A stretch of DNA of 55,134 bases, taken from assembly GCA_013115125.1 (NCBI GenBank), contig JABANN010000188.1, positions 1-55,134 of the forward strand. Direction: 5' to 3'. The stretch is from Perkinsus olseni (Eukaryota). Made by a program: the position numbers and the translations under genes. The notes under the pieces were generated by a model that saw nothing but the letters and a program-made list of their open reading frames with translations, made no database searches and was not told the DNA's origin. Positions 5,763 through 42,500 of the stretch are shown one piece after another (the stretch's first letter is position 1; each line of letters opens with the position of its first letter).

Positions 5763-8700
5763 CTAATGCGTAAATACGCTCAGTACTGCTGTTACCAGCA
5801 TCACAGCAGCGCCCTGACCCGAGGCCAGCCTCCAAGTCAGCAGGCATCTGAGAGAACTACGGAGTGAGCGAGGTGATGGAAAGCTGTGGATCCTACCGAG
5901 CCGAGCGCCTCCTTGGCAGGCAAGCTTCGCAGACTCTCTCGCCTGGGCGACTCCGACTGCTGAGAATTGACGAGCGGCCGTTCCGGAGTGCCCAAGGCCT
6001 ACGCAGGGATCCACTGCTGCCGGAGTTGCTAGTAAACACAGGCTGCCATTGGCCCCCGTGCAGAGCCTGTCTCGCCATTCCTCAAGCGTCTTCTTATTCG
6101 GGAGGACCTGCGCACCACTCCAACGCCAACTTCCGAGCGGAGGCAGCGTACACTTCTATCCTTGGTGCTCTCCATCTCCCTCTCTATGAAGAACGTCCTC
6201 ATCAGGCCCTTACCCTTTATGAACATATCCCCCCGGTCGACCAGCTCGAAGTCCCCTTGTATGCGCTGCGCTGTGGCCTCCGAGCAATGCACCTGAGCCG
6301 CCGCCGCTGCAGCTGCTGTGGCCTTGTGGGGCCGCTCACCTTCATGGGCTCGCCGTGGCTCTCCATCCGAGACGCTGTGTTCACACAGTCGCCCCAGACG
6401 TCGTAGATGAACTTCTTCCGGCCAATCACCCCCGCCACGCAAGAGCCAGAGTGACACCCGACCCGCAGTGCCAGAGGGTTACCCATGTCATCGCAAAACC
6501 TGGAGAGGCCACAGCAGAGGCCATCACGGCGACTAAGCAGGAGCGGGCTAATACACGCCAACATCAGCAACCATGTCGAGCCCCATGCGGGCTACAGCGT
6601 GAGCGTGGAGGGGATGGGGGGTGGGCAGGCCTGCCGCTGCCATGTACCTTACATGATGCGGTCGTGCGCAAAGAAGGATGACCGGCAGCGTACGCGTCCC
6701 CGATAGTTTTTATTTTCTCGAGGCCGTGCTTCTCGGCGATATTGTCAAACATGAAGAAGAGCTCATTGAGCAGCAACAGGACTTGTTCGGGAGGCACTCT
6801 CGAGGAGATAGAGGTGAACCCAACGACGTCAGCGAAGAGGATTGATGCATCGCTGTAACTGATAGCAGAATAAGCCGGAGTCCTGCTACAACGAGTCCGC
6901 TAATAATGATGAGTATCGGCAGTTCGACAGCGGCAATCTACGGACGGTAAAAGAAGTGTAAAGTGTAAAGGAGTAGCAGCAGCAGATACAATGTGGGAAT
7001 GACAAGCATGCAATATTCTCTCCTACGGAAAGCCCACAAACTTCTCATTTTCCATCCCTCAATCTGAATGCACACTGGCGTCAACAGACTCCGTCAAAAT
7101 ACGGTGCACACGAAGAAGACACGCGTGAGCCTCCAGAAGGTCGAACCTTACAACTCAGCGAGTGCCGAGTTATACAAGCCGCTAGTTGAGGCATTTCCAC
7201 CAACCGCCGCCGCCGCCGCGGCTGCTGCTGCTGTAGCTGCTATGCCCGCAAAACTCCGACTGTGCGGCACGCCACTACGCTTAGTGCTCTTGCCAGTGAG
7301 CAGCTGCGCTTGAGAGGATGCCGCCGCTATCTGAAGGGATCCTGCCAAATCTGCCTAACAGCACGATAGTCTCCTACTTGCATGGTGAAGGCCGCTGAGT
7401 TCTGACTACTGATGGCGTAACCCCCCTGCTGCTGGACCTGAGACCGACAAGGAAGGGACACCCCTCCGCGAGGCCGATGCCGAGCCCTCACTCCGTTAGG
7501 AACGTGCAAGTAGTTGGACTGGCCACAGTTGGTTTGAGCCAGCAGCTGACCTACCGACGATACACCTGAGCTTCGTGACTGCACCGCACCCACAGACCAC
7601 CCGCCGCCGTACTCCGGGCCGTGTTGCACACCGACACCGCGCTGAGGTCCTGCTGCTGCCGCTCCTTCAGAGTGTCAATGATCCGTTTGGGAAGTACCTT
7701 AACGTAGATTCGAACCTGGCTCGTTCGCAGCGACGCACATTCCTGAGTAGCCGGTCACTTCTCTGTGACTCAATAGTAACCATCAGTGACTGCACGAAGT
7801 CCTTGCGGCCCAACACCTACAGCAGCCACGGCCACGGGCTCACCGAGGCTCGGCGATACTACCTCGAGCGAGTAGGTGAGTATTGCCATGAACAGAGCAC
7901 TCACTACCATGATGACGGGGTCCGTCGGAAGGTCGAAGAATTCGCCATGACGCTCAGCCACCGTTGGGAAGGAGGCGCGCAGGGCCACAAAGAGGACAAT
8001 CTGGTACCTGTTTACAACACTAGACTATCGAGATTCAAGAGAGGCTGATCGATGTGCAACCTTACACAGAGACAGCGACCATGAGGATGAACCTGAGCCT
8101 GTAGAGGCAGGCGGTGACCAGAAGCAGGATGCAGAAGGTACTGGCCTCGTCCATCGGCCACGTGTACCAAGCAATCAGTTCCGGCCCCAGGTACCTGTTG
8201 AAGGGGTACCTCAGCCGTGAGGCATGTGCCCTTCATCACATCCAGAGGAGAGCCAGTGTGGTTGTGAACCAAGCAAAGCAGGACTGGAAGGCCTGGAAGT
8301 ACTGCACTAGCCAGCGGCGTGAAGATCTCCGACGAGGACGGTTGGAGGAACGTCCCACACTCTCATGGGAGGCTCGAAGGGAGGCCGTGCTGCTGCTGCT
8401 GCGAGGAGGAGGCGACGGCTCCCGAACTAGGATCGAGACGATAGTAAAGTGAATCTAAAGAGCCACGATAGAGGATGGGAGGATACTCCGGGGCCCGGAG
8501 TCCGGGCTCACCAGGCCAAGATAGATGAGAGCGTTGAGGGGCTCGGCCAGTAGGACCCTGCCGAATGTCGCCTCCGGGTAACGGTTGTGGAGCGACTCGT
8601 ACCTACGAATACGGAAGTTCATGGACAGTCCATCGAAGGTGACGATGATGATGGTGCGAGCGTGTGCTGCCTCCCAAAGACCACTAACTTAGGGCCACAA

Positions 8701-9775
8701 CAAGGAAGCCTCCGAGGACCAGTATGAGGCTCAACACTCGTATCAATTGTAAACTCTTATATGCTAAGTCAATTTGGTACCTGAAGGCTGTCCAATAAGA
8801 CGACCGGCAGGTCCTGCCGGGCAGGATAAGTACAATACCCTTTCTCGAGGCCGGGGTTCTCGAACTCCAGTGTGAGCCAATGCATGCTCTGGCCGTGGCG
8901 AGCCCAGAGCTCGTGTCGGTTCAACTTGTCGTAGAGCACCGCGTCCCATTTACCTACAGCACTCCCGTAGGGGCCAGAGACAGCGGGCGCCGGAGTGCTC
9001 AGAAATGCATGACAGCAGTTCACCGATTATTACAGTATAATTTTCCGTTTTTGGGGTTCTTGCAATCGTGTAACCTCAGAGGAATGCGGAGGGTCCAAGG
9101 AAGCAGAGACACAACGGAGAAGTCCCACCTGATCACCGAAAATGTCCTCTCCAAGCAGACGTTAGACGAACAAACTGTGAGGGGCTGGCGGTACCTTATC
9201 AAGGCACCCTTGCCCCTTGGGGGAGGTAGCGGAAAGGCATCCCATTCGGGAGGGTCACTAGCCCCGCTATTCTTCACCTCTGCAGTACCATTGAGAGTAC
9301 CTGTACCGCCCGCTCTCAGTAAGGTACGACCATGCTAGAGACCGTACTCGTGGATCCCCTATTGGTGACACGCATCGGCCCACCATCCATCACAGCAGGG
9401 CCGTGCTCCAGCGAGGAAGCCCTGGTCACCACACCCTTGCCCCTTCACAAGACTTATGGCTACTACTACTACTACTACCTGCCCTCTACGGAGTAAATGC
9501 TGCCTCCTGCTTGATGCTCCATCTCGGTGGACGAGGACTTTCGGGAACGGAATAGCCTCATCTTCCAATGACAAACTACTGTTACCTCGTCGCAAGAGTA
9601 GAAATCCCACCTCCTAGAAGCTGTGATAAGGCCACCAGTGGACTCAAGCGGCGAATGGTACAGCCCTCATGCCCCACCCCGACCCCCAGCAGTATAACAC
9701 TACCAACGCAAAGCCCACTGGGGACCTAGCCGTAGTATGAGACACAGCTTGTGCGACAGTGCAGTCGGACATCAT
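5763..9775 (-). CDS. Multi-exon membrane-bound class III nucleotidyl cyclase, adenylyl-type (N-terminal region, several TM helices, single catalytic domain); ends approximate
   Basis: Catalytic exons at 6100-6850 read [11 protein letters not shown]...[17 protein letters not shown]...[48 protein letters not shown]...[10 protein letters not shown]. Lys in KIKT and Asp in YDVW indicate ATP specificity. Upstream - strand exons with hydrophobic segments (e.g. [18 protein letters not shown]) trace back to ATG ATG at 9775. That all of this is one gene is an inference. Confidence 0.8.
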
Positions 9776-9877
9776 CGAATCCTTAGTAGGAAGTTACAAA
9801 CGGCCGTGGTTATCGAGGCTTGCGAGTATGAGTATTAATAACATTAGGATATAGCCATCCAGCGAGGACCTCCAAGT

Positions 9878-9937
9878 CAGCGAAAGCACATTGCTTGTGA
9901 GCCTCTGGGACCCACAGCGGATGCCGTTGCGTACACT
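9878..9937 (-). other. Conserved non-coding hairpin element, copy A (about 460 nt downstream of transporter 10397-11749)
   Basis: + strand CAGCGAAAGCACATTGCTTGTGA-gcctctgggac-CCACAGCGGATGCCGTTGCGTACACT matches 12365-12420 at 47/49 flank positions. Strand and function are inferred. Confidence 0.75.
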
Positions 9938-10396
9938 AGTATGGTCCTCGCCCAACGATGGTAGTATGGAAGAATGAGTGGTGTTAATGATGACTAAGTA
10001 TTACAGAGATCGCAGGACAGTAGACAGAGAGAATAGAATGCGAGAATGATAGTCGTGTTAAGAACGACAATACTACTCCCGGCAAAGGAAAAGCTCCTAA
10101 GAGTATAGGGCACTAAGCCAGCACCGTCCATCCGGCATCAACAAGGAATCACCAGGGTAACAACAGCGATAGCAGCCTTCGAAAGACCCCACTGTGTCAC
10201 CGGGATAGAACAGCGAGGCTGCAGAGAGGTAGTGAGAGAAACTGTCTACAGCTGGACAGCTAAATGCATCATCAAATCCGCAGAGTGTAATGAACGGTCG
10301 ACGAAACCGTACTCGGTAAAAATTGGAGGAACTCTAGCTGGCTCATCAACACTCCCGCCGAAGAGATGACGGGATGCCCGCCAGCTTTCGGAGAAG

Positions 10397-11749
10397 TTAC
10401 TTACTGTAAAAGTCGATAACGCCATCAAGAGAGACCCAGGTACCGAGTACGAGGGAAACCAAGCCCACCACGATCATCAACCAGTACCACCAGTTCTTCC
10501 ACGCGAACATCTTACCCTTAGCGAGGACGAGGTTGAAGGCTCCAGGCCCCAGGAAGCAGACGATCGAGCCGGCAATGGCTCCGACGAGCCCCAGAATCAT
10601 ATTAACATCGGGCAAGGCGACCGCCACTGCGAAGGACAGGGCTACCGTTAAGGTAGCAACGAATATACCAATGATGGTTCGATGCTTCTTGGGGTTGAGA
10701 GAGTGAAGGATAGTCGTCCTTACAGGGTAGATGTTGAGCGGGAAGCAGCCGACGATGGCGACGCCCATAAGAATAAAGGCAATGCACACCATCGGATCTC
10801 CAGACTGAATCATAGGGCTGAGACTGATGAGAACACTGGAGGCGATATCGTCCCCGAAGTTGATGAAGAAGAGGATGCCAACCATTAGGTAGACGATAAC
10901 ACTGACGATCATAGACACGGCAGTGACCCTCCTCATAGCGGAAGGCTTCCGGTTCGACAGGCCCACGTAAATCTCCGGAACGTTCGGCTGACTGGCGAAG
11001 GCGAAGATGTAGGTATTGAAGGCGGACATGAGCGACCCCGTGTTGAGGGGGGTCCATGCCGTATTTACATCAAACGTGTCCGAGACGCCGTAACGGGAGA
11101 GAGTGTAAATGGCTGTGATAGCAAGGAAAACGACTCCCACCGAACCAGCCATAGTCAAATACCTGATAGAGCCGATGCCCTTGAGAAGGGAGATCGGCCA
11201 GAGAATAATGACCGTGACCAGTATGCTGAAGTAGATCCTGTTTACGAACATTATGCCGTACCAGGTATCAGGGTGGGAACCGAAGGCGGCGACGAACACA
11301 GGGTTGAAGATATCGTAGATGGTGACGATGTATGCAGCGGCAGTACCGAAGCAGAAGAGGAACATACCGATTTGGAAAACCCATCCCCATTTCTTGCCAA
11401 AGAGCATGTCGACAAGATCTTCATAAGTATCTTTCTTCGCGATATCCTGTGCTCTCACGATCATTTCGACAGAGAGGAAGGTGAAGAAGCACATAGCACA
11501 CAGCAGGATGGTGCCAGCGATGATACCGGCACAATACATAGTGTAGGGCACGGCGAGAGCACCAGCACCGAGAGTGCCTTTCATAAGGCTGAACGCGGCC
11601 GCGGCTTCAGAGCCCTCGGCCAGCACATCCCACCACTTGAAGTTGGTAGCAGTAGATTTGGCATCCTTAACAGTATACTCGCTGTCGGAGGTCGATATCT
11701 CGGTAGAGGGCAGCTCCTCCTCCTCCGTTACGTCCTTCTGCTCGGGCAT
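10397..11749 (-). CDS. Amino acid/auxin permease (AAAP, Aa_trans / SLC38-like) transporter, intronless
   Basis: About 450 aa with about 11 hydrophobic segments. Motifs FSLMKGTLGAGALAVPY, TYEDL, FAFASQPNVPEIY, FPLNIYPVR and LGLVGAIAGSIVCFLGP. ATG at 11749. Confidence 0.93.
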   Translation of the reverse strand: MPEQKDVTEEEELPSTEISTSDSEYTVKDAKSTATNFKWWDVLAEGSEAAAAFSLMKGTLGAGALAVPYTMYCAGIIAGTILLCAMCFFTFLSVEMIVRAQDIAKKDTYEDLVDMLFGKKWGWVFQIGMFLFCFGTAAAYIVTIYDIFNPVFVAAFGSHPDTWYGIMFVNRIYFSILVTVIILWPISLLKGIGSIRYLTMAGSVGVVFLAITAIYTLSRYGVSDTFDVNTAWTPLNTGSLMSAFNTYIFAFASQPNVPEIYVGLSNRKPSAMRRVTAVSMIVSVIVYLMVGILFFINFGDDIASSVLISLSPMIQSGDPMVCIAFILMGVAIVGCFPLNIYPVRTTILHSLNPKKHRTIIGIFVATLTVALSFAVAVALPDVNMILGLVGAIAGSIVCFLGPGAFNLVLAKGKMFAWKNWWYWLMIVVGLVSLVLGTWVSLDGVIDFYSK

Positions 11750-12364
11750 CACACAAAGTCAGAGGGAAATGATGAAGGCTGTCAACGAACGGGATACTAG
11801 AACACACTTTGACCCGGGAAAATTCAGAGTCGGCCGAGACCCCTCCCCTCTTCCGCGGACATGCTAGCTTGCAGTACGCTAACACGCATGAGTACTTCGA
11901 TAAATCCCACGGAGAAACACGGCCTAGATCCATCTCGGGACAGGCTGGCACAGGGCCCTCCTCAGCTCCAGTACGATTAGGGCAGCACACAATTCGGGGA
12001 CAGCTGGCCATACCCACCCACCGGGTGTCCCACTAAGACGCGTTGCAATGACATTCTCTGATAGATGCATTCGGGTACGCCTTGCCCCGATGTGTCGAAA
12101 CACAACACTTGCTCGCTTCTGAAAGTCGACTCCGTTAACCGAAGGTGAGACAGCTCGATCGCCGACAAGGCGATCAGCTCGACTGGCGAGCAAAAATGCG
12201 CTTCACGCGCCGTCCGTCATCAACCCTGGCAAGGGCAGCACTGTCCTCAGTACCATCCTAGAGCACGGAATCACTCAAAACGCCTACTAACCTTCAACAA
12301 TACTTATGGACGATGACCAGAAGAAAATACAGAAGAATGTTGTTGTTGAGAGACCGGGTAGAGC

Positions 12365-12420
12365 CAGCGGAAGCACATTGCTTGTGAAATCAATCCACAG
12401 CGGATGCCGTTGCGTGCACT
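12365..12420 (-). other. Conserved non-coding hairpin element, copy B (about 43 nt downstream of the stop of transporter 12463-13794)
   Basis: + strand CAGCGGAAGCACATTGCTTGTGA-aatcaat-CCACAGCGGATGCCGTTGCGTGCACT, near-identical to 9878-9937. Confidence 0.75.
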
Positions 12421-12462
12421 CTCTTGCGGTCTCGGCAAAATCCTCATCATCAGAGCTGCTTA

Positions 12463-13794
12463 TCAGCCCCTCTCTTGATAGAATTCAATAGCGTCTAGAA
12501 TCGCTATGTACGTCCCTAGGAGGAAAGCGACAAGGCCAATGATGATCATGGCCCAATAATAGATTCTGTCCCTTATGTACACCGCACCACCATCAAGTTT
12601 TATGTTGAACGCAGCCGGGCCCAGAAAGCAGATGATAGAGCCAGCCAGGGCTCCCACCAGCCCTAGAATCACGTTCACGTCCGGCAAGGCAAGAGCGACG
12701 GCAAAGGCGAGTCCCACAGTGACGGTCGACACGACCATGCCGATGAGAGTCCTGTACTTCTTGGGGCGCAGCGAGTGCAGAACTGTGATTCGTACAGGAT
12801 AGATGTTAAGAGGGAACGTACCAACAATCGCTACAGCCATCATTAAGAAGGCAGCGGCGATGACGGGGTCTCCACTGTTCAGCCTAGGGCCCAAGCTCGT
12901 GAGAATGTTCGACTCGGTCAATGCACCGTATGCCACGAGAAAAAGAGATCCTTCCACTGCATAGACGACAAGGACGGAGAGAATGCTGATGAGCGTCACC
13001 TGACGCATGTTACGAGGGGTGGCAACCGAGAGCTCGGTGTATATCTCCGGGATGTTGGGCTGGTTGGCGAAGGCAAATATGTACGTGTTAAAGGCGCTCA
13101 CCAACGACGACAGATCCATGGGCTTCCACAGCATGTCGGAGGTGAAGCTCGAGGCCACACCGTAGCGTGCCAGCACATATACCGAGGTTATGGCGAGGAA
13201 GCAGGCACAGAGGGAACCGGTGAAGGTGAGGTAGCGGATAGAATCAATGGTCTTCATCAACGACACTGGGAGTAGTACCACCACTGTTACCAAAATACTG
13301 AAGTACAACCTGTTGGTCAGGAGTACGGCGTACCACTCCTCGGGGTTGTCCCCGAAGGCATGTACTGTGACAGGCCTCACAATGTCGTAGATGGTGACTA
13401 TGTATACGGCGCTGGTACCGAAGCAGAATACAAACATCGCCAGCTGGTAGAGGTAGCACCAGCGGCGTCCGAAGAGCAAATCTACTAGCTCCTCGTATGT
13501 ATCCTTCCCACTCTTGTGCACCGCCCTCACGATGAGCCCTAGGGACAGGATTGATAACGCGGCCATGACAACGAGGAGGACAAGGCCGAGAGCAACCCCA
13601 GCTGAGAGCATCGTGAAGGGCAGAGAGAGAGCCCCGGCTCCCAATGTAGCCTTCATGATGTTGAAGACAGCGGCTATCTTTGAGCCGGCCGGAAGGAGGT
13701 TGGTCATCCGGTTCCAGAAGGGCCTACCCTTCATCCCCTCGCCACACTTGGGAGACTCGAGCCCACCGGAGTGTGCCGAATCCGTCGTTTTCAT
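12463..13794 (-). CDS. AAAP (Aa_trans / SLC38-like) amino acid transporter, tandem paralogue, intronless
   Basis: Motifs FNIMKATLGAGALSLPF, TYEELVD, FAFANQPNIPEIY and FPLNIYPVR. First ATG (MKTTDS) at 13794. Confidence 0.93.
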   Translation of the reverse strand: MKTTDSAHSGGLESPKCGEGMKGRPFWNRMTNLLPAGSKIAAVFNIMKATLGAGALSLPFTMLSAGVALGLVLLVVMAALSILSLGLIVRAVHKSGKDTYEELVDLLFGRRWCYLYQLAMFVFCFGTSAVYIVTIYDIVRPVTVHAFGDNPEEWYAVLLTNRLYFSILVTVVVLLPVSLMKTIDSIRYLTFTGSLCACFLAITSVYVLARYGVASSFTSDMLWKPMDLSSLVSAFNTYIFAFANQPNIPEIYTELSVATPRNMRQVTLISILSVLVVYAVEGSLFLVAYGALTESNILTSLGPRLNSGDPVIAAAFLMMAVAIVGTFPLNIYPVRITVLHSLRPKKYRTLIGMVVSTVTVGLAFAVALALPDVNVILGLVGALAGSIICFLGPAAFNIKLDGGAVYIRDRIYYWAMIIIGLVAFLLGTYIAILDAIEFYQERG

Positions 13795-14485: not shown

Positions 14486-15649
14486 TCACCAATCATCAGT
14501 GAGATCAATAACTGCTGTTAATTCGCTGGGCTCACTGGCATACTTCGCAGCCTTGCTGGGCTTGCAGTGGAAGTAACTCTCCAGCCTTCCCCGGTGATCA
14601 GGGAGCATGATACTCCCAGCCACAGCTGTAACCTGAGCGTCTCGCTCCGCCAACGTCTTCCCAACCGTTCCAATAACCCTCTGCGGCCGTACGTGCTTCA
14701 GAAAGTCCACCAGCTCTGTGTAGGAGCTATGCTCGCTATACGGTATCGAGTACAGCACGCAGCCTGGATGTTTCTTACTGCGCCAACAAGATTCTTTCCG
14801 AGTCCAGCCAGTGCAGCGAAATCCAACCACCTTGCCGTAGCCCGCCTCGAGAAAGTCGGCCAGGGTGTCGGGCGAATTCCCAACTCGGCCCATGGTATCG
14901 AAAACCACCCCACAGTCTTCCTTGTCCGCGATCAGCCTCTCCGGAATCGCTCCGCAAATTGCTACGATCTTCCGTCGATTTTTGGGTATGAAAATTTTCT
15001 TCCCAAGGACCTCGCTTATCCGCACCGCACAGGATTCCTTTCCCAGCCTGTAACCCCCAACAACAAAAATAGTACCCGACTCGTTCTCTCTACCAACAAT
15101 TCTAGCGATCATATCCAAAGCGTCCTCCCTAGGTGGATGGACGAACCGCCTGTCCGAATACGTTGTATCTAGCCATACTGTGTTGATAACGCCATTACCG
15201 GGGACCGTCTTCAGGAGGGAGCTCGAAGCCCGGAAATCTCCCGTGTGAAGGCCCATCCAGTCACCAGCGCCGCAGAACAGAAACATGACCGCTCCTGGGC
15301 AGTGATTAGCATCAATACAGGTCACCTGTACTCCCCCAATCTCGGTCGGCCGGCCCATTTCCAACTTCACGACTCGGGAGCCGTCAACGCCGATAACCTG
15401 GGTCACCAGCTCTGCCGTGATCGGCGAGCAGTATATGGTTCCCTTGCAAAAGCCCTTCGCAAGACCCCAAGTATGGTCCCCATGAAAGTGAGTTAAAAAA
15501 TACGTGCTGCTATTCTGACGCAGCCTTACAGGTACACCAAAGCCGTCCACTATGAAAGCCTCCGTTTGCCCCGGGATCTCCGTTATAACCTTATACGCCC
15601 ATTCCCTCTTCTCCTTCTCGAGGGATGATGCCGAGCGCTTGGGAGGCAT
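14486..15649 (-). CDS. SNM1: SNM1/PSO2/DCLRE1-family DNA cross-link repair nuclease (metallo-beta-lactamase + beta-CASP), intronless
   Basis: Motifs FLTHFHGDH, DANHCPGA, LHTGDFR, LDTTY and IPYSEHSS. Likely start MPPKR at 15649, although the frame stays open to ATG 16099. Confidence 0.9.
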   Translation of the reverse strand: MPPKRSASSLEKEKREWAYKVITEIPGQTEAFIVDGFGVPVRLRQNSSTYFLTHFHGDHTWGLAKGFCKGTIYCSPITAELVTQVIGVDGSRVVKLEMGRPTEIGGVQVTCIDANHCPGAVMFLFCGAGDWMGLHTGDFRASSSLLKTVPGNGVINTVWLDTTYSDRRFVHPPREDALDMIARIVGRENESGTIFVVGGYRLGKESCAVRISEVLGKKIFIPKNRRKIVAICGAIPERLIADKEDCGVVFDTMGRVGNSPDTLADFLEAGYGKVVGFRCTGWTRKESCWRSKKHPGCVLYSIPYSEHSSYTELVDFLKHVRPQRVIGTVGKTLAERDAQVTAVAGSIMLPDHRGRLESYFHCKPSKAAKYASEPSELTAVIDLTDDW

Positions 15650-16266
15650 CACCTGTTGAGAAGCCTGAAACAATGCCGAATGACAAGGGTTCAATATTGG
15701 TATAGCGAGTAGTGAGGATCCTCGTATGACCGCTCGAGCATAGATATTGTGTAAAGGTATTGAGATACATATTATAATAATATAGAGATATGATATTTTC
15801 TTGGTTACCTCATTCATAGGCGTTTCAACCCATCTAGATTTATAAGGATAGTATATTATACGTATCAGCTCATGTAAGCCCGCGTGGCCTGTCATAACCA
15901 ACATTGACAAGGCATGCTCGATCGAGTGGGGAAATTTGATGACCCCTTCGAGGTGACCCGAAGTGACTTGGAAGTGCCGCACTGAAACTACCGCCTCCTC
16001 CACTTCTTCCGCACGAAGGAAACCAAAAAATGTATCGTACGCGAATCTCGCCCATCCCATAGGATTCCCCCAAACGTGAGATTCACTAACACAAGCCATT
16101 AAGGTGATAGTATAATTATTTCAGGAGGCATAGTTGCAAGCCAGGCGAATCGGGCCGAAAACCCGTAATATTACTAAACAACACACTGTTCTGAATACCT
16201 CTAGAGTGACCCGAAACTGCCTCCTTCGGGACCCCAGGCATCGCCTGCTGATGCAGTAGTCCTAGC

Positions 16267-17241
16267 TTACGCGGACTTCAAGAGAGCCTGACGCTGCTTC
16301 TCCTTAGCCCTGTTATCAAGAGTCTCCTGGAAGGCCTTCCACATAACAGAGAAGAACATACCCTGAAGACCGTTGGTGAGGATACGAGTAGCAAGGCCAC
16401 GGCCGAAGAGTCCGGCGTAACCATCCTTGGCAACGATATTCCTGACAGCCTGGGGATAGGTGAGAGGCACCTGGGAAGTCTGCTTAGTGGTCTTGAGCAC
16501 CCTAAGGGAGTTCGAAATGCAATCGGACACGAAGGATGAGCAGAAACCGAGCACGGCGTTACGCACATATTTGCCATACTTGAAGTTGAAATCGGGCAAA
16601 TGAGCGTTCAGAGTGTTATGGGTGACGAACCACGGGTAGTGGCCAACCCAAGTGGCGGCCATGGCACCGAGAGTACCGTGCCACAAATTGGAGATACCGT
16701 GAGTCTTCACCTTGTTCATGAGGACCTTCATACCAGCCTCGCCCTCGACCTGCTTGGTGGTCTTCCAGGCATCAATAGGCATGAGGAAGGCACGGAAGCA
16801 TGCGGCGCCGCAAGAGGCGAAGGCAGTCTTGACACCGATGGGCATGTTCTGAGTGGCCTGAGTGTTATCCAAGAGAGCCAATACTCCAACGTTAGCGGCG
16901 GTATCGCCGAAACGAGACATGGGGGCCTGGATCAGGGCGGGGACAAGACCGCGATAGAAACGGGGAATGCCACCCTCGGCGTAAAGCTTCTTGAGGACCT
17001 CACCGAGGTGACCACCATAACGGTACTGGTAGTTCATAGTGGTACGCATCCACATGAGGGCGAACACGTTAACGACCTGGGCGGAAGCACCAGCGATACC
17101 ACCGCGGAAGGCGGCCTTGGTGGCCTTGTTGAGGACATCGGCGGCGGCGAGCTGCTTGCGCTGCTGTTCCAGAGCAGCAGCCTGGGCAGGCGCGGGGGCG
17201 GCAGTAGTGGTAGTTGTCGCAGGTGCGGCGGAAGTAGACAT
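16267..17241 (-). CDS. Mitochondrial carrier family (SLC25) protein, intronless
   Basis: Three carrier repeats: EGGIPRFYRGL, PIDAWKTTKQ...LWHG and KDGYAGLFGRGL. ATG (MSTSAAP) at 17241. Confidence 0.9.
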   Translation of the reverse strand: MSTSAAPATTTTTAAPAPAQAAALEQQRKQLAAADVLNKATKAAFRGGIAGASAQVVNVFALMWMRTTMNYQYRYGGHLGEVLKKLYAEGGIPRFYRGLVPALIQAPMSRFGDTAANVGVLALLDNTQATQNMPIGVKTAFASCGAACFRAFLMPIDAWKTTKQVEGEAGMKVLMNKVKTHGISNLWHGTLGAMAATWVGHYPWFVTHNTLNAHLPDFNFKYGKYVRNAVLGFCSSFVSDCISNSLRVLKTTKQTSQVPLTYPQAVRNIVAKDGYAGLFGRGLATRILTNGLQGMFFSVMWKAFQETLDNRAKEKQRQALLKSA

Positions 17242-18220: not shown

Positions 18221-19869
18221 ATGCCCGAATCGATTTCCTCCGAGTTGCCGGTGGATGTCCCGACAGATTCACTCAAGAAGCCCTACCCGACCGTCAGGGC
18301 TCGAATCAGGCAGCTAATCCTCTGGCACAACCAACAATGGAAGGGCATGCGGTTCCCCGGAGCCGCGCTGTTCTTCTTCAAGTTCTTCTTCCTTGGCTTC
18401 GCCATAGCGCCTAAGGATGTGCCTCGAGACGCCTGGTGGGGTGTTACCTTGACGGCCTGTGCCTGCATGGGGTCGGCCGTGCTCCCCCTTCCCCTGCCGG
18501 CCTTCTGCGTGTTTGTCTTGGCCCTCGCTGGTTTATCAGGGGGGATGACATCCGATGAGATCGTCTCGGGCTTTGGCAGTCCAGACCTGTGGTTCAACAT
18601 GTTCAGCTTCATGACTATAAGAGCCTTCACTGTGACAGGCCTCGGTCAAAGACTTGGCCTTCTTGTTTACAAGTACATAGGATTCAACGTCCTACTGGTG
18701 GCCTATGTTATCTGTGCGCTTGAGCTCATCTTGGCTCTGTTCATAACATCTCCAGCAGTCCGTGCTGTCGGCTTGGTCATGCCCGTACTGGTACCCTTAC
18801 TCGAGCATGGCTACAAGTCCTCTCCCCAACGGGGGACGCAGCGAGAGGTCGGCAGCTATCTGATCCTCGTCGAGATAACAGCCAATGCCTTTACCAGCGC
18901 ATGCTGGCTTACTGGTTACAACGATGTTAACCACTTCATCGCCACTTATCTGGGCGAACAAGGCTTGGACGCGGACTTCAACTTCTGGGCGACTGAGGTC
19001 GCCATCCCTGTGCTACTGGCTGTGCTTCTGGTGCCGTTGATGCTCTACTTGCTGCATCGACCTGAGTACATCCGAGACCCCACCGCTTACAAAGATGCGT
19101 GCGAGCAGCTGAGATCGCTCGGAACCGTCTCCTGCCCGGAAGTAAGCTCGCTGTCACGTCTCAGTAGTTCCCCAGCCAGCGGCTTCGTACGCTCAGGTCA
19201 TTGTGGCTATCATCTATGTTGCCACTTTCGCCCTTTGGGTTGCCGCATCGATGTCGCCTGGCTTCTACATCAGCGATATGATTATCGCTGCCATCGGTAA
19301 GCCGCCCACCCGTCGGAGTTATTGTTCATGCTGCTTTCTGGGCAGGTATCGCAGCCCTCCTAGCGTTCGGCATCATCGAATCCGAGTCGGCGATACTTGA
19401 AGACAAGCGCCCATTTCGGATGCTCTTCTACTACGGGATGCTCCTTTCGATAATCCAAACGGCCGTGGCCAAGGGCTACTGGGCCTATCCCTTCGCTGGC
19501 AAGTATGTTGTGGAATGGTTATCCGACCTACCAGTCAGCAGCTCGGTTCTGCTCGGTTCTTTTGTTATGTACTTCACATCTTATGTTTATACTTCTCCAT
19601 TAGCCCATGCTAGAGATTTCTATCCCCCTATCTTCGAGTCGATGCTCCAAAATGGTGTTCCTGCTCGTCTAGGGTCGAGTGCATTGTCATATGTCACCAT
19701 GGCTCGTAATCTATCACCGTACACTTCCCCGACCAATCCTGCCTACTACGCCCTCGAGTACGTCACCGCTCGCCAGTGGTGGTTCTGTGGGGTAGCATCG
19801 CTTGTATTAAACTACCTGTTCCTCATCTCTGTGGGGTTTTTGTGGTGGCTCATAATTGGCGACTGGTGA
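18221..19869 (+). CDS. DASS-family (sodium:sulfate / dicarboxylate) transporter, similar to CitT and DiT oxoglutarate-malate translocators
   Basis: Three exons joined in frame by introns 19142-19196 and 19297-19345. Motifs PLPL, SGFG, TGLGQRLG, TSPAVRA, LSPYTSP..PAYY and a C-terminal WWLIIGDW* typical of the family. Confidence 0.85.
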
Positions 19870-21238: not shown

Positions 21239-22738
21239 ATGTCCAAACGCCTTCCTCGCGCGCTGGACCACACTGGGCCATCGTCGGATTCCCATCGGGA
21301 ATGTGCGGGTGCGCGCTTACGAGGCTGCTCCTTGTCCTCTATTATGAGGGATCGTTCTTTCCTTCGTGATGCTGAGAGTCATAAAGATGCATACGACGAG
21401 TCAGTACCAGTCAGATCTCTCGAATTTTTCTTTAGCCATTCCTGGTCGGCTGATGGCTTTTCGAAACAGATGGCTCTTTTTATTTGTTGTAGCAGTTCTA
21501 CGTATAAGGTGATGTTTTTTTCATCTTTGATCGGAGCTTATTTATTTCATGGCCGTGGTCCCTCCGGGGCTCACACTCGGCTGATGGTGTTCTTTTTCGG
21601 CTTTGCATCATTTCTAGTCAGCCTGTTTATTATACCATTACTCAAGCATCGCAAAACCATGGTATTTCTCGATAAATGTTGTATACCGCAGAATGACCCT
21701 GTTGCCAAGGCCTACGGTATATCAATGCTCGCCGATTATCTCCGCGCTTCGAAGAAACTAGTTATACTGTGGTCCCCTAATTATCTCGACCGTCTGTGGT
21801 GCGTCTACGAGTTGGCCGTCTTTCTGCGAACACACGGTAAAGAAGACGTTATCTTGGTCAACCTGGACCATTTTAAGCTCTGTGTGTCACTCATGCTTCT
21901 GCAGTTTCTGAGTGTCCCCGTACTCAGTCTTGCGGAAGAACACATCTCAGGGCGAATAGTATACGCGGGGTATGCTTTAGGTGCTGCTACAAGTTTCCTC
22001 ATTGGTCGGAGAGCCTTCTGTTCGAGCGATGAATGGCAAGGATTCTGTTCGAAGGTCAAGTCGTTCAGCGTTCACCGAGCTAAGTGCTCAACTTTAGCAG
22101 ACCGCAACACTCTCAGGAAGCTCATAACCGATATGTACGGTTCAGAGACCAAGTTCGCCGCTGTAGTGAGGGCCATCTGGTTGGGTGAAGGCGAAGAGAA
22201 GCATTACCCAGCTTGGCTGTTCTCTATGGCGACGCTGCGAATCCTCTGTGCGCCTTACGTCCCTCTCATCGTTGCGAGTACTGTACATGCTATCGCTCGC
22301 AGAACTCGTGGAGTTAGCGTGGCCCTTATACCGGTGTACCGTCCAGGAGTGATCCCCGAACCTTTGCCGGGCAGAGTTCATACAACCCTGTGGGATATAC
22401 GGACCTCGATCGTACCACTCATAATGATGTCCTTCCGCGCTCCGGTCATGTTGATCGTAGTCCACAAACTCACAACTAGTTCGACGTTCAGGAAATTTGG
22501 CAAGTGGTGTCTGAGTGTAACTTTCTCTCTGACCTTCGCGGCGTACAATTGTTCAACTCAGCTTATATGCGGCTTGCAAATCTTCTACCATCCACTCCGC
22601 ATGGCTCCGATAGCCAGGTCGGTGGACGAGGTGCTCTTCTGGCTGGGCGGAATCATTGCTGTGGGCGTTGTCTTTTCAATTTTACGACGCTCGTATGCAT
22701 CTGAGCTACTTATTGATTTATCTAAACCGTCCCACTAA
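21239..22738 (+). CDS. Intronless 499-aa polytopic membrane protein with a TIR-like (TIR_2-type) domain
   Basis: FFFSHSW, VFLDKCCIPQ and LVILWSPNYLDRLWCVYELAVF occur in TIR order, with multiple hydrophobic helices. An in-frame TAA directly precedes the ATG. Confidence 0.75.
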   Translation: MSKRLPRALDHTGPSSDSHRECAGARLRGCSLSSIMRDRSFLRDAESHKDAYDESVPVRSLEFFFSHSWSADGFSKQMALFICCSSSTYKVMFFSSLIGAYLFHGRGPSGAHTRLMVFFFGFASFLVSLFIIPLLKHRKTMVFLDKCCIPQNDPVAKAYGISMLADYLRASKKLVILWSPNYLDRLWCVYELAVFLRTHGKEDVILVNLDHFKLCVSLMLLQFLSVPVLSLAEEHISGRIVYAGYALGAATSFLIGRRAFCSSDEWQGFCSKVKSFSVHRAKCSTLADRNTLRKLITDMYGSETKFAAVVRAIWLGEGEEKHYPAWLFSMATLRILCAPYVPLIVASTVHAIARRTRGVSVALIPVYRPGVIPEPLPGRVHTTLWDIRTSIVPLIMMSFRAPVMLIVVHKLTTSSTFRKFGKWCLSVTFSLTFAAYNCSTQLICGLQIFYHPLRMAPIARSVDEVLFWLGGIIAVGVVFSILRRSYASELLIDLSKPSH

Positions 22739-39500: not shown

Positions 39501-42500
39501 AGTATGGTACTGTACAGCAGCCGTACTAACGAAGGTCGACTCTCCCTTGAAAAGGGCTCGGGCCGTCTCTAGGGCCTACACACCACTAATAGTCAGCAGC
39601 GCTCTGTCAGTCTAGGCCGTTCCACCTGAGTCATCGCCGTTATATCCAATGGGAGCACATCACCACTGATCCAGGTCTCAACATCTTCGCGAGGAGCATC
39701 AGCCGCCAACAGCAGCACCTGAGAATCCACGACACTGCCCCCCCCAGCCGAGTCACGCACAACTAGTTACTACCAAGGCTGCACCATTAGCATTGAGGCC
39801 TCTTGCTAGCTCACAGATAACAGAAGAAGGCAGGCGGGCCGACTCCTGTGGAGCGGAGAGCAGGGCGTCCAAGACCTCAGCAGCCGAGTTGCCTACATCT
39901 CGATGAGCGTGACATTCAGTTACACCCTATCCTGCTATTACTACCCTCTCCAACGATCGACTTCACAATCGTCTTCAACTGTTCTATCTGTGGACCCTCG
40001 AGAGGCGCCTTGATCTGGCCGAGAGTCTCCCTCAATAGGTCGACAGTCTTGATGGCCCCACACAGTCCAAGGGCGGCCGAGAGCTGCTGCTTATTGGCAG
40101 CGGCCCTCAGGACCACGGGCTTGACAATCGCCAAGTCAGCCTTCTGGCATACGTTGCCAAGAATAGACAGGCAGACCAGATCCAAGGCCTCCTCACGAGC
40201 CTTCTCACCCGAGAGCAACCTAGGAGGGAACACCGTCTGAAGGAGGCCGCTTTCCTCCAAGAAGGCCGCCCACTCACCCACACAGCGGCTTGACCAGGGC
40301 CTTTCGCGCAACCTCTCTGTCGGTGGCTGAGAGTTCAGTGGTCTGCTGGAACAGAGCCTCGCCAGCCAGAACAGCATTCACCGCCTCTCCGCCCGAAATC
40401 AATGGAAGGAGGGTCGAGGCCAAAACCTGCCGGAACGCTCAAACCACGCATACTGAAACAGGCTACTACCTTCACGGAGATGCCATCAGCGTGTGTCAAG
40501 AAGCGAACGGCACCCGGGCCCGGGAGGGTGGCACAAGTGGCACGCTCCACTAACTTCTCCAACTGCTTGGGCTTTAGTCTCGAACCAGCATTGGCCATCA
40601 CCCCAAGAAGGTCATCCGAGATGCCAGCGCCGGCGGCACCGACTACAGTATCAGCGAACTTCCCAACGACCCTGTCGTCCTCGCATTTCGCCAGGGCGTC
40701 GCCCAGAGCGGCAACTGCGGCTCCAGTAGCGCTGGGGACAGCACCGTTGTGCAGAAGAGACTTCGAGTCCACCATGCGGAGCAGGTCCATACACTGTCCC
40801 TGAAGATCGGCACCTGAAGGAAAGTCATCACTGCCTGGTAGACAGCCTCCCACCCCCCTATTACCGACTGCTCCAGAAGCCTCCAAAATCCAGCGGATAA
40901 GGCCACCGTTGGCAGCGACTATCTCCCTGACAACCGCTGTAGAGCCCACAGCATCGGCCTCCCGCTCAGCAAGCGCCTTCCTCAGAGCTGCGTACGCCTT
41001 CCCTTCAATACTCCTCTCAACTCCCCTATTCACCAACAACCATGGATCCTCATTAGAGGCCGCTGGAGCCTTCGTCCTGGACACTATTTCCGACTGGGCG
41101 AAGGACCTCATGTGCTTGCTTGCATCATCAGAGCCCAGTACGAGGAGGCAAGCCAAGAAGAGAGCGTTGTCATTAGCCTTGGACCCGACCCGTTCCGTGT
41201 ACATTCGGAAAGCCTTCAAGTTGTGCTGCCTCACCGCCAAGGACAACAGCACCGGACGCTTCTCTGCACCCTTCACAGCACTCTTCGCCATCTCCTTGCA
41301 AGCAGGGTTGTTAATCATCAGCCCGACAAGCTTTTCAACGTCACCGTCCTCGGTGGTGGCAGAGGCCAACTTGGCGTAAACGGAAGCGTCCACGGACTTA
41401 TCGAGGCCGAGGCTCTCGATCGCCTCCAGGACCTCGTGTGCTGTCGGCGCTCCACTATCAGCCTCCACACATGCCTGGATGAGCGCAGCAGCGCCGGCTG
41501 CACCACCCGGGTAGGTCTCCTCGCTGTCGGGCATGACGGGTGTGGTGATCTCCGGTTTATCGCCCCGCACAACCTTCACAGCGATCACGGCGGCAGTGGC
41601 CTCCTCGGCCAGCAGAGAGAGCACGGCGTCAACTTCCTCGATTACACGCTCGTCAACGGCGACAACCTGATTCGAGCTAAGACCCTCAAGACCGTACGCC
41701 ATCCCTACTACCTCTTCCCAGTACTGCTTGGGTGTGATGCGCTCCCTCGACGGCAAAAGCCTCCTCAGCAGCCCCTCCAAGGCTACTCGCTTCACCTCGC
41801 CTGAGACGGCCTCCCAAACCCATTCAGCCTCGAGAATCTTCTTTCTAATGACGTGGGAGGGCTCCACTCCGAGACGTTCCACCACCAGCCCAGCCACAGC
41901 CTTGGCCTCGCCGCCAGAGGTGCTGTCCCGATCCACAAGCTGCGCGATAGCCTCCTCCCGAGCCGATGCCGAAGTAGTGGAGAGATGGCGGAGTAGTTGA
42001 GCATCCAGTACATGACCACCAGGCAACATTGCTTCAACCTCCTTAACGCACTTATGCTTGAGAGCACAGCGGCTAACAGCGACAGGGAAGTTGTCGTACA
42101 GCTGAGGTAGTATCTATCGTAAGGGCAGAGAGTGAGGCGGGTTACTCTGATAGCTCCTACGGTTTACCTCGGCCACGTGAGATTCCTCAGGGCCATTGGC
42201 AATGATGGCCACTGCAGAGTCACAGACACACAAGGCAGCCGCAGAGGAGGCGCCGAGCAGCCAGGTTGAAGAGGCGACAGCCGACAAGAATGACGACTCG
42301 CAGAAGGGCAGCACGAGGCCGCTCAGTACAAGCGTCCAGCCCCTTGACTTGCCTATGGCCTCTAGGACCTGATGACAGATGAACCATCACTGCCAAAGGG
42401 CCAGAGTAAGGCTTGCCTGTTCCGAGTGGGCATCGAAGCGAGCATCGAGCTCCCTGGCGACCTTGACCCAGAAGTTGCCTTGCCTCGCCGAGAACCTCAG

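Follow-up and report, generated by a model that had tools for sequence, protein, structure and literature searches.

A candidate structured 3'UTR element in two tandem amino-acid transporter mRNAs of Perkinsus olseni

Described 3'UTR structures and the Perkinsus element

The iron-responsive element, the histone mRNA stem-loop, the Roquin constitutive decay element and the Smaug recognition element are single 3'UTR hairpins. Protein-bound stem-loops of this kind are common to functionally related mRNAs and act through their binding protein on stability or translation, with the conserved determinant in the loop or bulge and with stems that covary. The element of Perkinsus olseni presented here is likewise a single 3'UTR hairpin common to functionally related mRNAs, and action through a binding protein is expected for it, too. 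Unlike in the described systems, its loop region is free (apical spacers of 11 vs 7 nt) and both arms are invariant. Pre-microRNA hairpins resemble it in length (about 60-75 nt), in two conserved arms of about 22 nt, in a variable loop and in internal mismatches, but the element is not more stable than its shuffled versions and lies within the 3'UTR of protein-coding mRNAs; in the literature searched, no microRNAs of Perkinsus were documented. The eukaryotic TPP riboswitch in plant 3'UTRs is a conserved structured RNA by which the expression of a pathway gene is coupled to a metabolite of that pathway. The Perkinsus element is also a structured 3'UTR RNA, but with no match in Rfam and with a much simpler fold.

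Perkinsus, a parasite of molluscs, employs trans-splicing and is related to the dinoflagellates, whose genes are considered to be controlled mainly at the post-transcriptional level. Control is considered to be largely UTR-based both in trypanosomatids, with their 3'UTR regulons and spliced-leader trans-splicing (PMC11405848), and in dinoflagellates, which also use a spliced leader (PMC6027434). These trans-splicing protists are comparable inasmuch as one of the two mRNAs described below bears a spliced leader as well; their elements are mostly linear or compositional motifs, unlike the stem-loop here, and no relation in sequence or structure is claimed. In open-access full text, no defined cis-element was found for Perkinsus. 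If two transporter mRNAs have retained a 60-nt element almost unchanged from a time before two species separated, that element would offer a tangible way into such control and into nutrient uptake in a mollusc parasite. It could also serve as a bait for the binding factor; its practical weight is modest until it is found in other species or on other mRNAs.

Transporter genes and element copies in their mRNAs

The window, i.e. the whole stretch of DNA analysed, is 55,134 nt long. The features of the locus are as follows.

10397..11749, minus strand: coding sequence of transporter A, 450 aa, Aa_trans PF01490 (E 3.2e-50), stop codon at 10397-10399
12463..13794, minus strand: coding sequence of transporter B, 443 aa, Aa_trans PF01490 (E 4.5e-52), stop codon at 12463-12465
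9729..10396, minus strand: 3'UTR of mRNA A according to RNA-library contigs ending at 9768 (X18) and 9729 (X8), colinear, with 0 other letters and 0 gaps
12117..12462, minus strand: 3'UTR of mRNA B according to RNA-library contigs ending at 12133 (X18) and 12117 (X8)
11779..11780, minus strand: AG trans-splice acceptor of mRNA A according to the X18 contig, the genomic AG and the published spliced leader
9875..9937, minus strand: element copy A, with 5' block 9912-9937, apical spacer 9901-9911 (11 nt) and 3' block 9875-9900
12362..12420, minus strand: element copy B, with 5' block 12395-12420, apical spacer 12388-12394 (7 nt) and 3' block 12362-12387

Genes A and B lie next to each other and point the same way, and each has an uninterrupted reading frame from its ATG to a stop at the aligned C-terminus. 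Their proteins are 55% identical, in line with the original prediction, which had called them clearly diverged. Four-fold sites are saturated, as 39 of 125 are identical (31%) vs 29% expected from composition. At best, 41 of 49 positions are identical in the coding alignment, with 14 nt as the longest exact run, and the element is better conserved than any coding stretch of the two genes. A protein named P. marinus shares 89% identity with transporter A. Transporter B matches a partial P. olseni protein at 98% identity, one P. marinus protein at 74% and the P. marinus protein that is close to A at 54%. Each transporter is thus closer to its own P. marinus protein than to the other transporter, which, judged from these protein identities, places the gene duplication before the split of P. 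olseni and P. marinus. When metagenome contigs were searched for orthologous loci with an alignment of seven proteins, one locus only was recovered, with 28% identity, too remote to be of use.

Contigs of gene A span 9768-11780 (X18) and 9729-11780 (X8) and are mRNA-shaped. The 3'UTRs delimited by the contigs are about 630-670 nt long in mRNA A and about 330-346 nt in mRNA B, and RNA-contig depth falls to zero in 11794-12021 and 9400-9627. At position 11780, the X18 contig goes on for nine loose letters, the reverse complement of which equals the 3'-terminal portion of PmaSL1, the published spliced leader of Perkinsus (PMC3101222). Spliced-leader letters at a genomic AG directly establish the minus strand as sense. 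Inclusion of the element in the transporter mRNAs, proposed earlier as a check, was borne out: colinear RNA-library contigs cross both copies. Because these mRNA-like contigs pass through them, both copies are located in the transporter 3'UTRs, and hence in mature mRNA downstream of the stop; the contigs are compatible with shorter isoforms as well.

The alignment of the two proteins runs through to their final residues. Both stops are therefore authentic, and so is the difference in distance from stop to element, 460 nt for copy A vs 43 nt for copy B, as had been estimated (about 460 and about 43 nt). The distance from the element to the 3' end of the contigs is not kept either (about 110-150 nt in A vs 230-250 nt in B). 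A coding exon or an extended C-terminus was ruled out, as the proteins end at aligned residues and every frame is broken; it is the 4-nt difference in spacer length that breaks every frame and makes the element non-coding.

The common part of the copies corresponds to alignment columns 10-72 of the minus (sense) strand. Apart from the spacer, 49 of the 52 block positions are identical (25/26 in the 5' block and 24/26 in the 3' block). All three differences are transitions; two of them form a U-A/C-G pair and one is in an internal loop. The longest exact runs are 21 nt (9912-9932 = 12395-12415) and 17 nt (9884-9900 = 12371-12387). The near-identity of the two copies reported at the outset is thereby confirmed, and its narrower blocks were reproduced as well (9912-9937 vs 12395-12420 with 25/26, i.e. 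96.15% over 26). The spacers of 11 and 7 nt are unalignable. The flanks had been described as not alignable, too, and outside the element the 3'UTRs of A (668 nt) and B (346 nt) have no common word of at least 9 nt, only five scattered common 8-mers, all off diagonal.

This conservation is directly established and exceeds chance. By chance, 0.01 occurrences of the 21-nt block with up to three mismatches would be expected in the window, and two matches occurred in 0 of 100 shuffles. The 15-nt block with three mismatches is uninformative alone because 36 of 100 shuffles gave at least two matches. When the window was compared with itself (blastn-short, E <= 1e-3), the element was the single non-self match. 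A covariance model run without filters over the 55,134 bases recognized only two sites, A with 101.5 bits and B with 92.9 bits, the next match having E 0.78; block patterns with three mismatches and self-BLAST likewise revealed no further copies in the window. Both window copies have the same orientation and lie within the 3'UTRs of paralogues.

Predicted fold and the preferred reading

The element is predicted to form an irregular stem-loop of about 60-75 nt, its helix extending to about 9868-9946 in copy A and 12355-12429 in copy B. The fold is compatible with both copies, as all 17 of the 17 proposed pairs are standard in each of them, while shifting the partners by 1-3 columns leaves only 26-50% standard. 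Between the copies, both sides have changed in two pairs, and no pair is broken. The G-C to A-U change had been noticed before and is present at the same position; the U-A/C-G double change is a second one. The 4-nt length difference corresponds to two extra pairs, with a loop of 5 nt in both copies. The minus strand folds at -20.4 and -20.6 kcal/mol vs -16.9 and -15.7 for the plus strand because of three conserved G-U pairs. Inside the whole 3'UTR, the mean pair probability is 0.90 (A) and 0.82 (B).

The selected RNA structure of the original prediction is thus partly supported: its 17 pairs hold in both copies, with two double changes, but its energy is ordinary and its covariation is within the range of shuffles. 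Random placement of the differences inside the blocks gave a compensatory pair without a broken pair in 0.8% of cases when any substitution was allowed and in 2.2% when all were transitions. The observed covariation value was reached by 137 of 500 shuffles, in a control made of two sequences and with the structure chosen on the same sequences. Folding energy relative to shuffles has z of -0.30 in copy A (71 of 200 fold as well) and -1.07 in copy B (29 of 200). In the full-UTR fold, the basal pairs 13-71 and 14-70 of copy B have a probability of 0.01 and a register shifted by one is preferred, in which each of the two changes affects a single side of a pair and is not compensatory. Near-total sequence identity of the stem is also unlike what selection on structure alone predicts.

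As in cis-regulatory 3'UTR stem-loops, the element is located downstream of the stop in mRNA and is conserved beyond the neutral level. It is probably a shared regulatory signal of both transporter mRNAs. The preferred reading, to which a probability of roughly 0.55 is assigned, is a new cis-acting structured stem-loop in both 3'UTRs that would be read by a trans factor. The host genes, two SLC38-like (Aa_trans) amino-acid transporters of a Perkinsus genome, form an old tandem pair. Most likely, the ancestral gene already had the element in its 3'UTR, and purifying selection would have retained it in both daughters as the surroundings decayed. Both arms are invariant, unpaired bases included, and only the tip varies in sequence and length, from which we infer that the helix and internal loops are recognized in a sequence-specific manner by a factor acting in trans, most likely a protein that binds RNA. 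Such a factor may set the stability, translation or localisation of both mRNAs jointly, and the outcome could be linked to amino-acid supply. The unalignable spacer argues against a recent conversion or insertion because one tract would carry the spacer along.

Alternative readings and known RNA classes

The arms of the element are also direct repeats of each other, in 17 of 20 positions in copy B (0 of 2000 shuffles) and 14 of 17 in copy A (25 of 2000), so what is read could be two adjacent copies of one linear motif. The signal would then be no hairpin but a partly palindromic motif of some 20 nt present twice in tandem, bound either as DNA, e.g. by a transcription or termination factor between the tandem genes, or as single-stranded RNA. 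Invariance of the sequence itself beyond pairing, in unpaired bases too, agrees with this, as does the position of copy B about 590-640 nt upstream of the trans-splice site of gene A. However, below copy A the minus strand continues with a gene that contains a Guanylate_cyc exon and is no paralogue, and a shared upstream role would thus be without a shared target. The 4-nt spacing difference shifts the helical phase of DNA but would not matter at the tip of a hairpin, the three conserved G-U pairs speak for the sense strand of the mRNA, and single units are not enriched in the window (six matches vs 2.7 expected and four vs 3.0, every extra one with 2-3 mismatches). Taken jointly, the DNA and single-stranded RNA variants are unlikely.

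A precursor of a microRNA-like or other small RNA within the 3'UTR, cleaved by a Dicer-like enzyme into arms serving as guide and passenger, is somewhat less probable still. Two nearly invariant arms of about 22-26 nt around a terminal loop free in sequence and length are conserved in a precursor-like manner, and the hairpin length of about 60-75 nt is within the 60-80 nt or so of such precursors, but the folding energy is not below that of shuffles. Precursor hairpins are usually clearly more stable than shuffles. The arms are spanned by only 17 pairs with several internal loops, and the window contains no complementary target site elsewhere. Dicer-like proteins found by BLAST in P. marinus, as stated in a review (PMC6027434), count in favour of such a precursor.

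Homogenisation of a functionless duplication leftover by short gene conversion is improbable. Neighbouring genes in the same orientation favour ectopic exchange, but flanking homology to start it is absent, and with an unalignable middle between near-identical sides, exchange must have happened twice, in independent tracts of about 26 nt each. Moreover, the coding sequences are better substrates and carry no converted stretch, their longest common run being 14 nt and their four-fold sites random.

Two fragments or insertions of a dispersed repeat, MITE- or SINE-like and by chance behind both paralogues, are slightly more improbable. The element is short, with hairpin-forming ends and sharp similarity borders, as in such repeats. 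However, the 55,134 bases hold only the two sites described, in the same orientation and both within paralogue 3'UTRs, and the internal spacers differ completely. The arms pair imperfectly (17 pairs with internal loops), and neither a target-site duplication at the borders nor a duplicated flank was seen at either copy when the alignment was inspected by eye. The exact gapped pattern had 0 matches in metagenome contigs and 0 in prokaryote genomes, and a 20-nt block had 0 matches in viral contigs, all of these being collections that hardly sample Perkinsus.

No match at the gathering threshold was found in the whole window with Rfam 15, whose families include TPP, glycine, lysine, glnA, SECIS, IRE, snoRNAs and spliced-leader RNAs, in agreement with the earlier statement that the element could not be matched to a TPP, glycine, lysine, glnA, SECIS, snoRNA or spliced-leader consensus. 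At E <= 10, there was no match on 3'UTR A and a single one on 3'UTR B, to an unrelated lncRNA model (12.6 bits vs a cut-off of 55). A perkinsid nutrient-sensing RNA device, either an amino-acid or metabolite switch or a self-targeting small-RNA precursor that tunes uptake via both mRNAs, has a very low probability; if true, it would be a eukaryotic regulatory RNA class beyond the TPP riboswitch. Least probable is a riboswitch-like 3'UTR RNA sensing an amino acid or related metabolite directly, for although the element has invariant internal loops and helices in about 60 nt on two amino-acid transporter mRNAs, and small aptamers are comparable in size, it lacks an Rfam match, its proposed fold is that of a plain irregular hairpin that includes neither a junction nor a pseudoknot, and it has no evident expression platform. 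Moreover, no riboswitch class other than TPP is known to be established in eukaryotes.

Several other classes were considered and rejected. SECIS elements are defined by a core quartet AUGA ... GA and an apical A-rich motif; there is no in-frame UGA upstream, no AUGA on either 5' arm and no match to a SECIS model. C/D box snoRNAs carry RUGAUGA (box C) close to their 5' end and CUGA (box D) close to their 3' end. Here, CUGA follows copy A only (CUGG in B), UGAUGA is upstream of B only, and no snoRNA of Rfam was recognized. ARAGORN found 0 tRNA genes in the window. A bacterial-type terminator, which is irrelevant in a eukaryote, was matched once, by half of the copy B hairpin, vs 2.8 matches expected.

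The element and its transporter genes

The two amino-acid transporter genes and the two copies of the candidate hairpin, the latter placed by minus-strand alignment of both copies, lie as follows.

10397-11749, minus strand: transporter A frame, 450 aa (Pfam Aa_trans, E 3.2e-50)
9875-9937, minus strand: element copy A
12463-13794, minus strand: transporter B frame, 443 aa (Pfam Aa_trans, E 4.5e-52)
12362-12420, minus strand: element copy B

The presence of a near-identical element behind both transporters, as the original prediction described, is confirmed. The copies are identical at 25 of 26 columns in the 5' block and at 24 of 26 in the 3' block (49/52 together), all three differences are transitions, and the longest exact runs in common are 21 and 17 nt. 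The spacer between the blocks, 11 nt in copy A and 7 nt in copy B, is not alignable. Reading and aligning both sites showed the predicted counts, coordinates and spacer lengths to be correct, and the similarity reaches 3 nt beyond the predicted starts. No other common word of at least 9 nt was found between the two 3'UTRs outside the element. With three mismatches permitted, the 21-nt block has an expectation of 0.01 in the window, and two matches occurred in 0 of 100 shuffles; a 15-nt pattern with three mismatches was uninformative, as 36 of 100 shuffles gave at least two matches.

The C-termini of both transporters, and of their relatives, align to their ends, so the stops are genuine and the unequal distances claimed earlier hold: the element lies 460 nt after the stop in gene A and 43 nt after it in gene B. 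Coding sequence is ruled out for the element, because the 4-nt spacer difference breaks every reading frame across it.

The transporters share 55% identity over 413 residues, and their closest relatives in the protein search are named as Perkinsus proteins. For transporter B, identity is 98% with a partial P. olseni entry, 74% with one P. marinus protein and 54% with a second; the latter is 89% identical to transporter A. These identities place the duplication before the split of P. olseni and P. marinus. At four-fold sites of the A/B codon alignment, 39 of 125 are identical (31%), where composition predicts 29%; the best 49-nt stretch of that alignment has 41 identities and its longest exact run is 14 nt. 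Thus, neutral sites are saturated, and the non-coding element is kept better than any coding stretch.

Presence in the mRNAs

Transcript evidence came from contigs of public sequencing runs compared over 9400-12800, which reveal neither isoforms, levels nor exact transcript ends. Contigs of X18 (an RNA-labelled run) and X8 (a run of unrecorded kind) are mRNA-shaped and colinear with the window, matching it without a differing letter or a gap. Gene A contigs span 9768-11780 (X18) and 9729-11780 (X8), and those of gene B extend down to 12133 and 12117, respectively; contig depth is zero in 9400-9627 and 11794-12021. The 3'UTRs are accordingly about 629-668 nt long in A and 330-346 nt in B, and the contigs run past the element by about 110-150 nt and 230-250 nt, respectively.

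The X18 contig of gene A leaves the genome match at 11780 and continues with nine loose letters, which when reverse-complemented equal the 3' part of PmaSL1, the P. marinus spliced leader given in PMC3101222. The genomic site is:

11779-11780, minus strand: spliced-leader trans-splice acceptor AG of the transporter A mRNA (X18 contig end and genomic AG)

This AG sits about 30 nt upstream of the transporter A ATG (11749). The spliced-leader letters at a genomic AG mark this contig, which contains copy A, as a trans-spliced mRNA of minus sense. With contigs traversing both copies, the expected location inside the transporter mRNAs was borne out, and the element is a real, transcribed and strongly constrained 3'UTR element.

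X20, an RNA run labelled as a mollusc metagenome, has two low-depth contigs at 9931-10129 and 12395-12730 (199 and 336 nt), identical to the window with 0 other letters, so transcripts of both genes appear in a host-derived sample. The X8 contig of gene B is 2287 nt long, with about 1600 nt beyond 12800, and seems to pass the start codon (13794) by about 600 nt, to about 14400, while the X18 contig (1695 nt) stops about 30 nt past it. For the X8 overhang, a long 5' leader, read-through from the adjoining gene and a chimeric contig are all conceivable.

Predicted fold and possible explanations

The two copies share one irregular hairpin fold in mRNA sense (-20.4 and -20.6 kcal/mol). Folding of the plus strand is weaker (-16.9 and -15.7 kcal/mol), because three conserved G-U pairs turn into C-A. 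A 17-pair structure, derived from the same two sequences on which it was scored, gives standard pairs in 34 of 34 alignment cells, and 26-50% with partners slid by 1-3 columns. The predicted G-C/A-U change adjoining the tip is present, and a second double change, U-A/C-G, was found near the base; it accounts for two of the three in-block differences, the third being in an internal loop. Under random placement, a compensatory pair without a broken pair arises in 0.8% of cases (any substitution) or 2.2% (transitions only). The additional 4 nt of copy A correspond to two more pairs beneath a loop of 5 nt, the loop size being the same in both copies. Folded in the whole 3'UTR, mean pair probability is 0.90 (A) and 0.82 (B), and dissimilar flanks extend the helix in both. 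The predicted hairpin did not stand out by energy, which is ordinary against shuffles (z -0.30, 71/200 as good; z -1.07, 29/200), and covariation between only two sequences is not significant (137 of 500 shuffles reach the observed value). The whole-UTR fold of copy B favours a basal register shifted by one, in which both basal changes are one-sided; pairs 13-71 and 14-70 (alignment columns) have a probability of 0.01 there. The hairpin is a plausible model, and the original interpretation has partial support.

The best explanation, with a probability of about 0.55 and based on two copies in one genome, is purifying selection on a cis-acting 3'UTR stem-loop. It is suggested by the succession of conserved, saturated and again conserved sequence, by the mRNAs of an old pair, by the better-folding strand and by the whole-pair changes at the tip. 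The ancestral transporter gene would have carried the stem-loop in its 3'UTR, and both daughters would have inherited it. As arms and internal loops are invariant and the loop is free, a sequence-specific trans-acting factor may read the helix and co-regulate both mRNAs; this factor, its effect and a tie to amino-acid supply we only infer.

The hairpin arms double as direct repeats of a motif of about 20 nt, identical at 17 of 20 positions in copy B (0/2000 shuffles as good) and at 14 of 17 in copy A (25/2000). The recognised feature may accordingly be either the helix and its internal loops or a pair of linear-motif copies. Because the unit is in part a palindrome, tandem units can pair, and the element may have arisen by tandem duplication of this unit. 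Pattern search showed no enrichment of single units in the rest of the window, and a tandem linear or DNA-level motif is an unlikely reading. A small-RNA precursor is slightly less likely still; Dicer-like proteins occur in P. marinus, according to a review (PMC6027434). Short gene conversion without function is improbable, and a single recent conversion tract or insertion seems an unlikely source of both copies, because the spacer would have travelled along. Slightly less probable again is a dispersed repeat: a covariance model made from both copies and run unfiltered over the window found only these two sites (101.5 bits for A, 92.9 for B; next E 0.78), and the element was the single non-self match of the window against itself (blastn-short, E <= 1e-3). 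Exact element patterns gave 0 matches in metagenome contigs, prokaryote genomes and viral contigs, collections that hardly sample Perkinsus, and a search of metagenome contigs guided by the proteins yielded a single distant locus (28% identity) and no usable orthologue.

A ligand-sensing RNA is very improbable. The element matches no known family: Rfam gave no match at gathering score in the whole window, none at E <= 10 in 3'UTR A, and in 3'UTR B one unrelated lncRNA model far under cut-off. No tRNA was found in the window, and no described Perkinsus UTR element in the main texts of open-access papers. The element is filed among 3'UTR cis-regulatory stem-loops.

Neighbouring genes

The frames around the transporter pair are:

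6567-6899, minus strand: adenylate/guanylate cyclase catalytic domain (PF00211, E 5.1e-17)
14486-16099, minus strand: DNA-repair metallo-beta-lactamase (DRMBL, E 9.3e-17)
16267-17241, minus strand: mitochondrial carrier (E 6e-19)
18221-19300, plus strand: sodium:sulfate symporter-like protein (E 8e-37)
21239-22738, plus strand: 499-aa frame with a weak TIR-domain match (TIR_2, 23.7 bits, below the Pfam cut-off of 28)

A 564-aa frame at 40335-42029 (minus strand) has no Pfam match. The PF00211 match takes in profile positions 5-63 of 183 only, and the frame seems to be a single exon of a gene with several exons, downstream of transporter A. The region around the transporter pair is rich in transporters.
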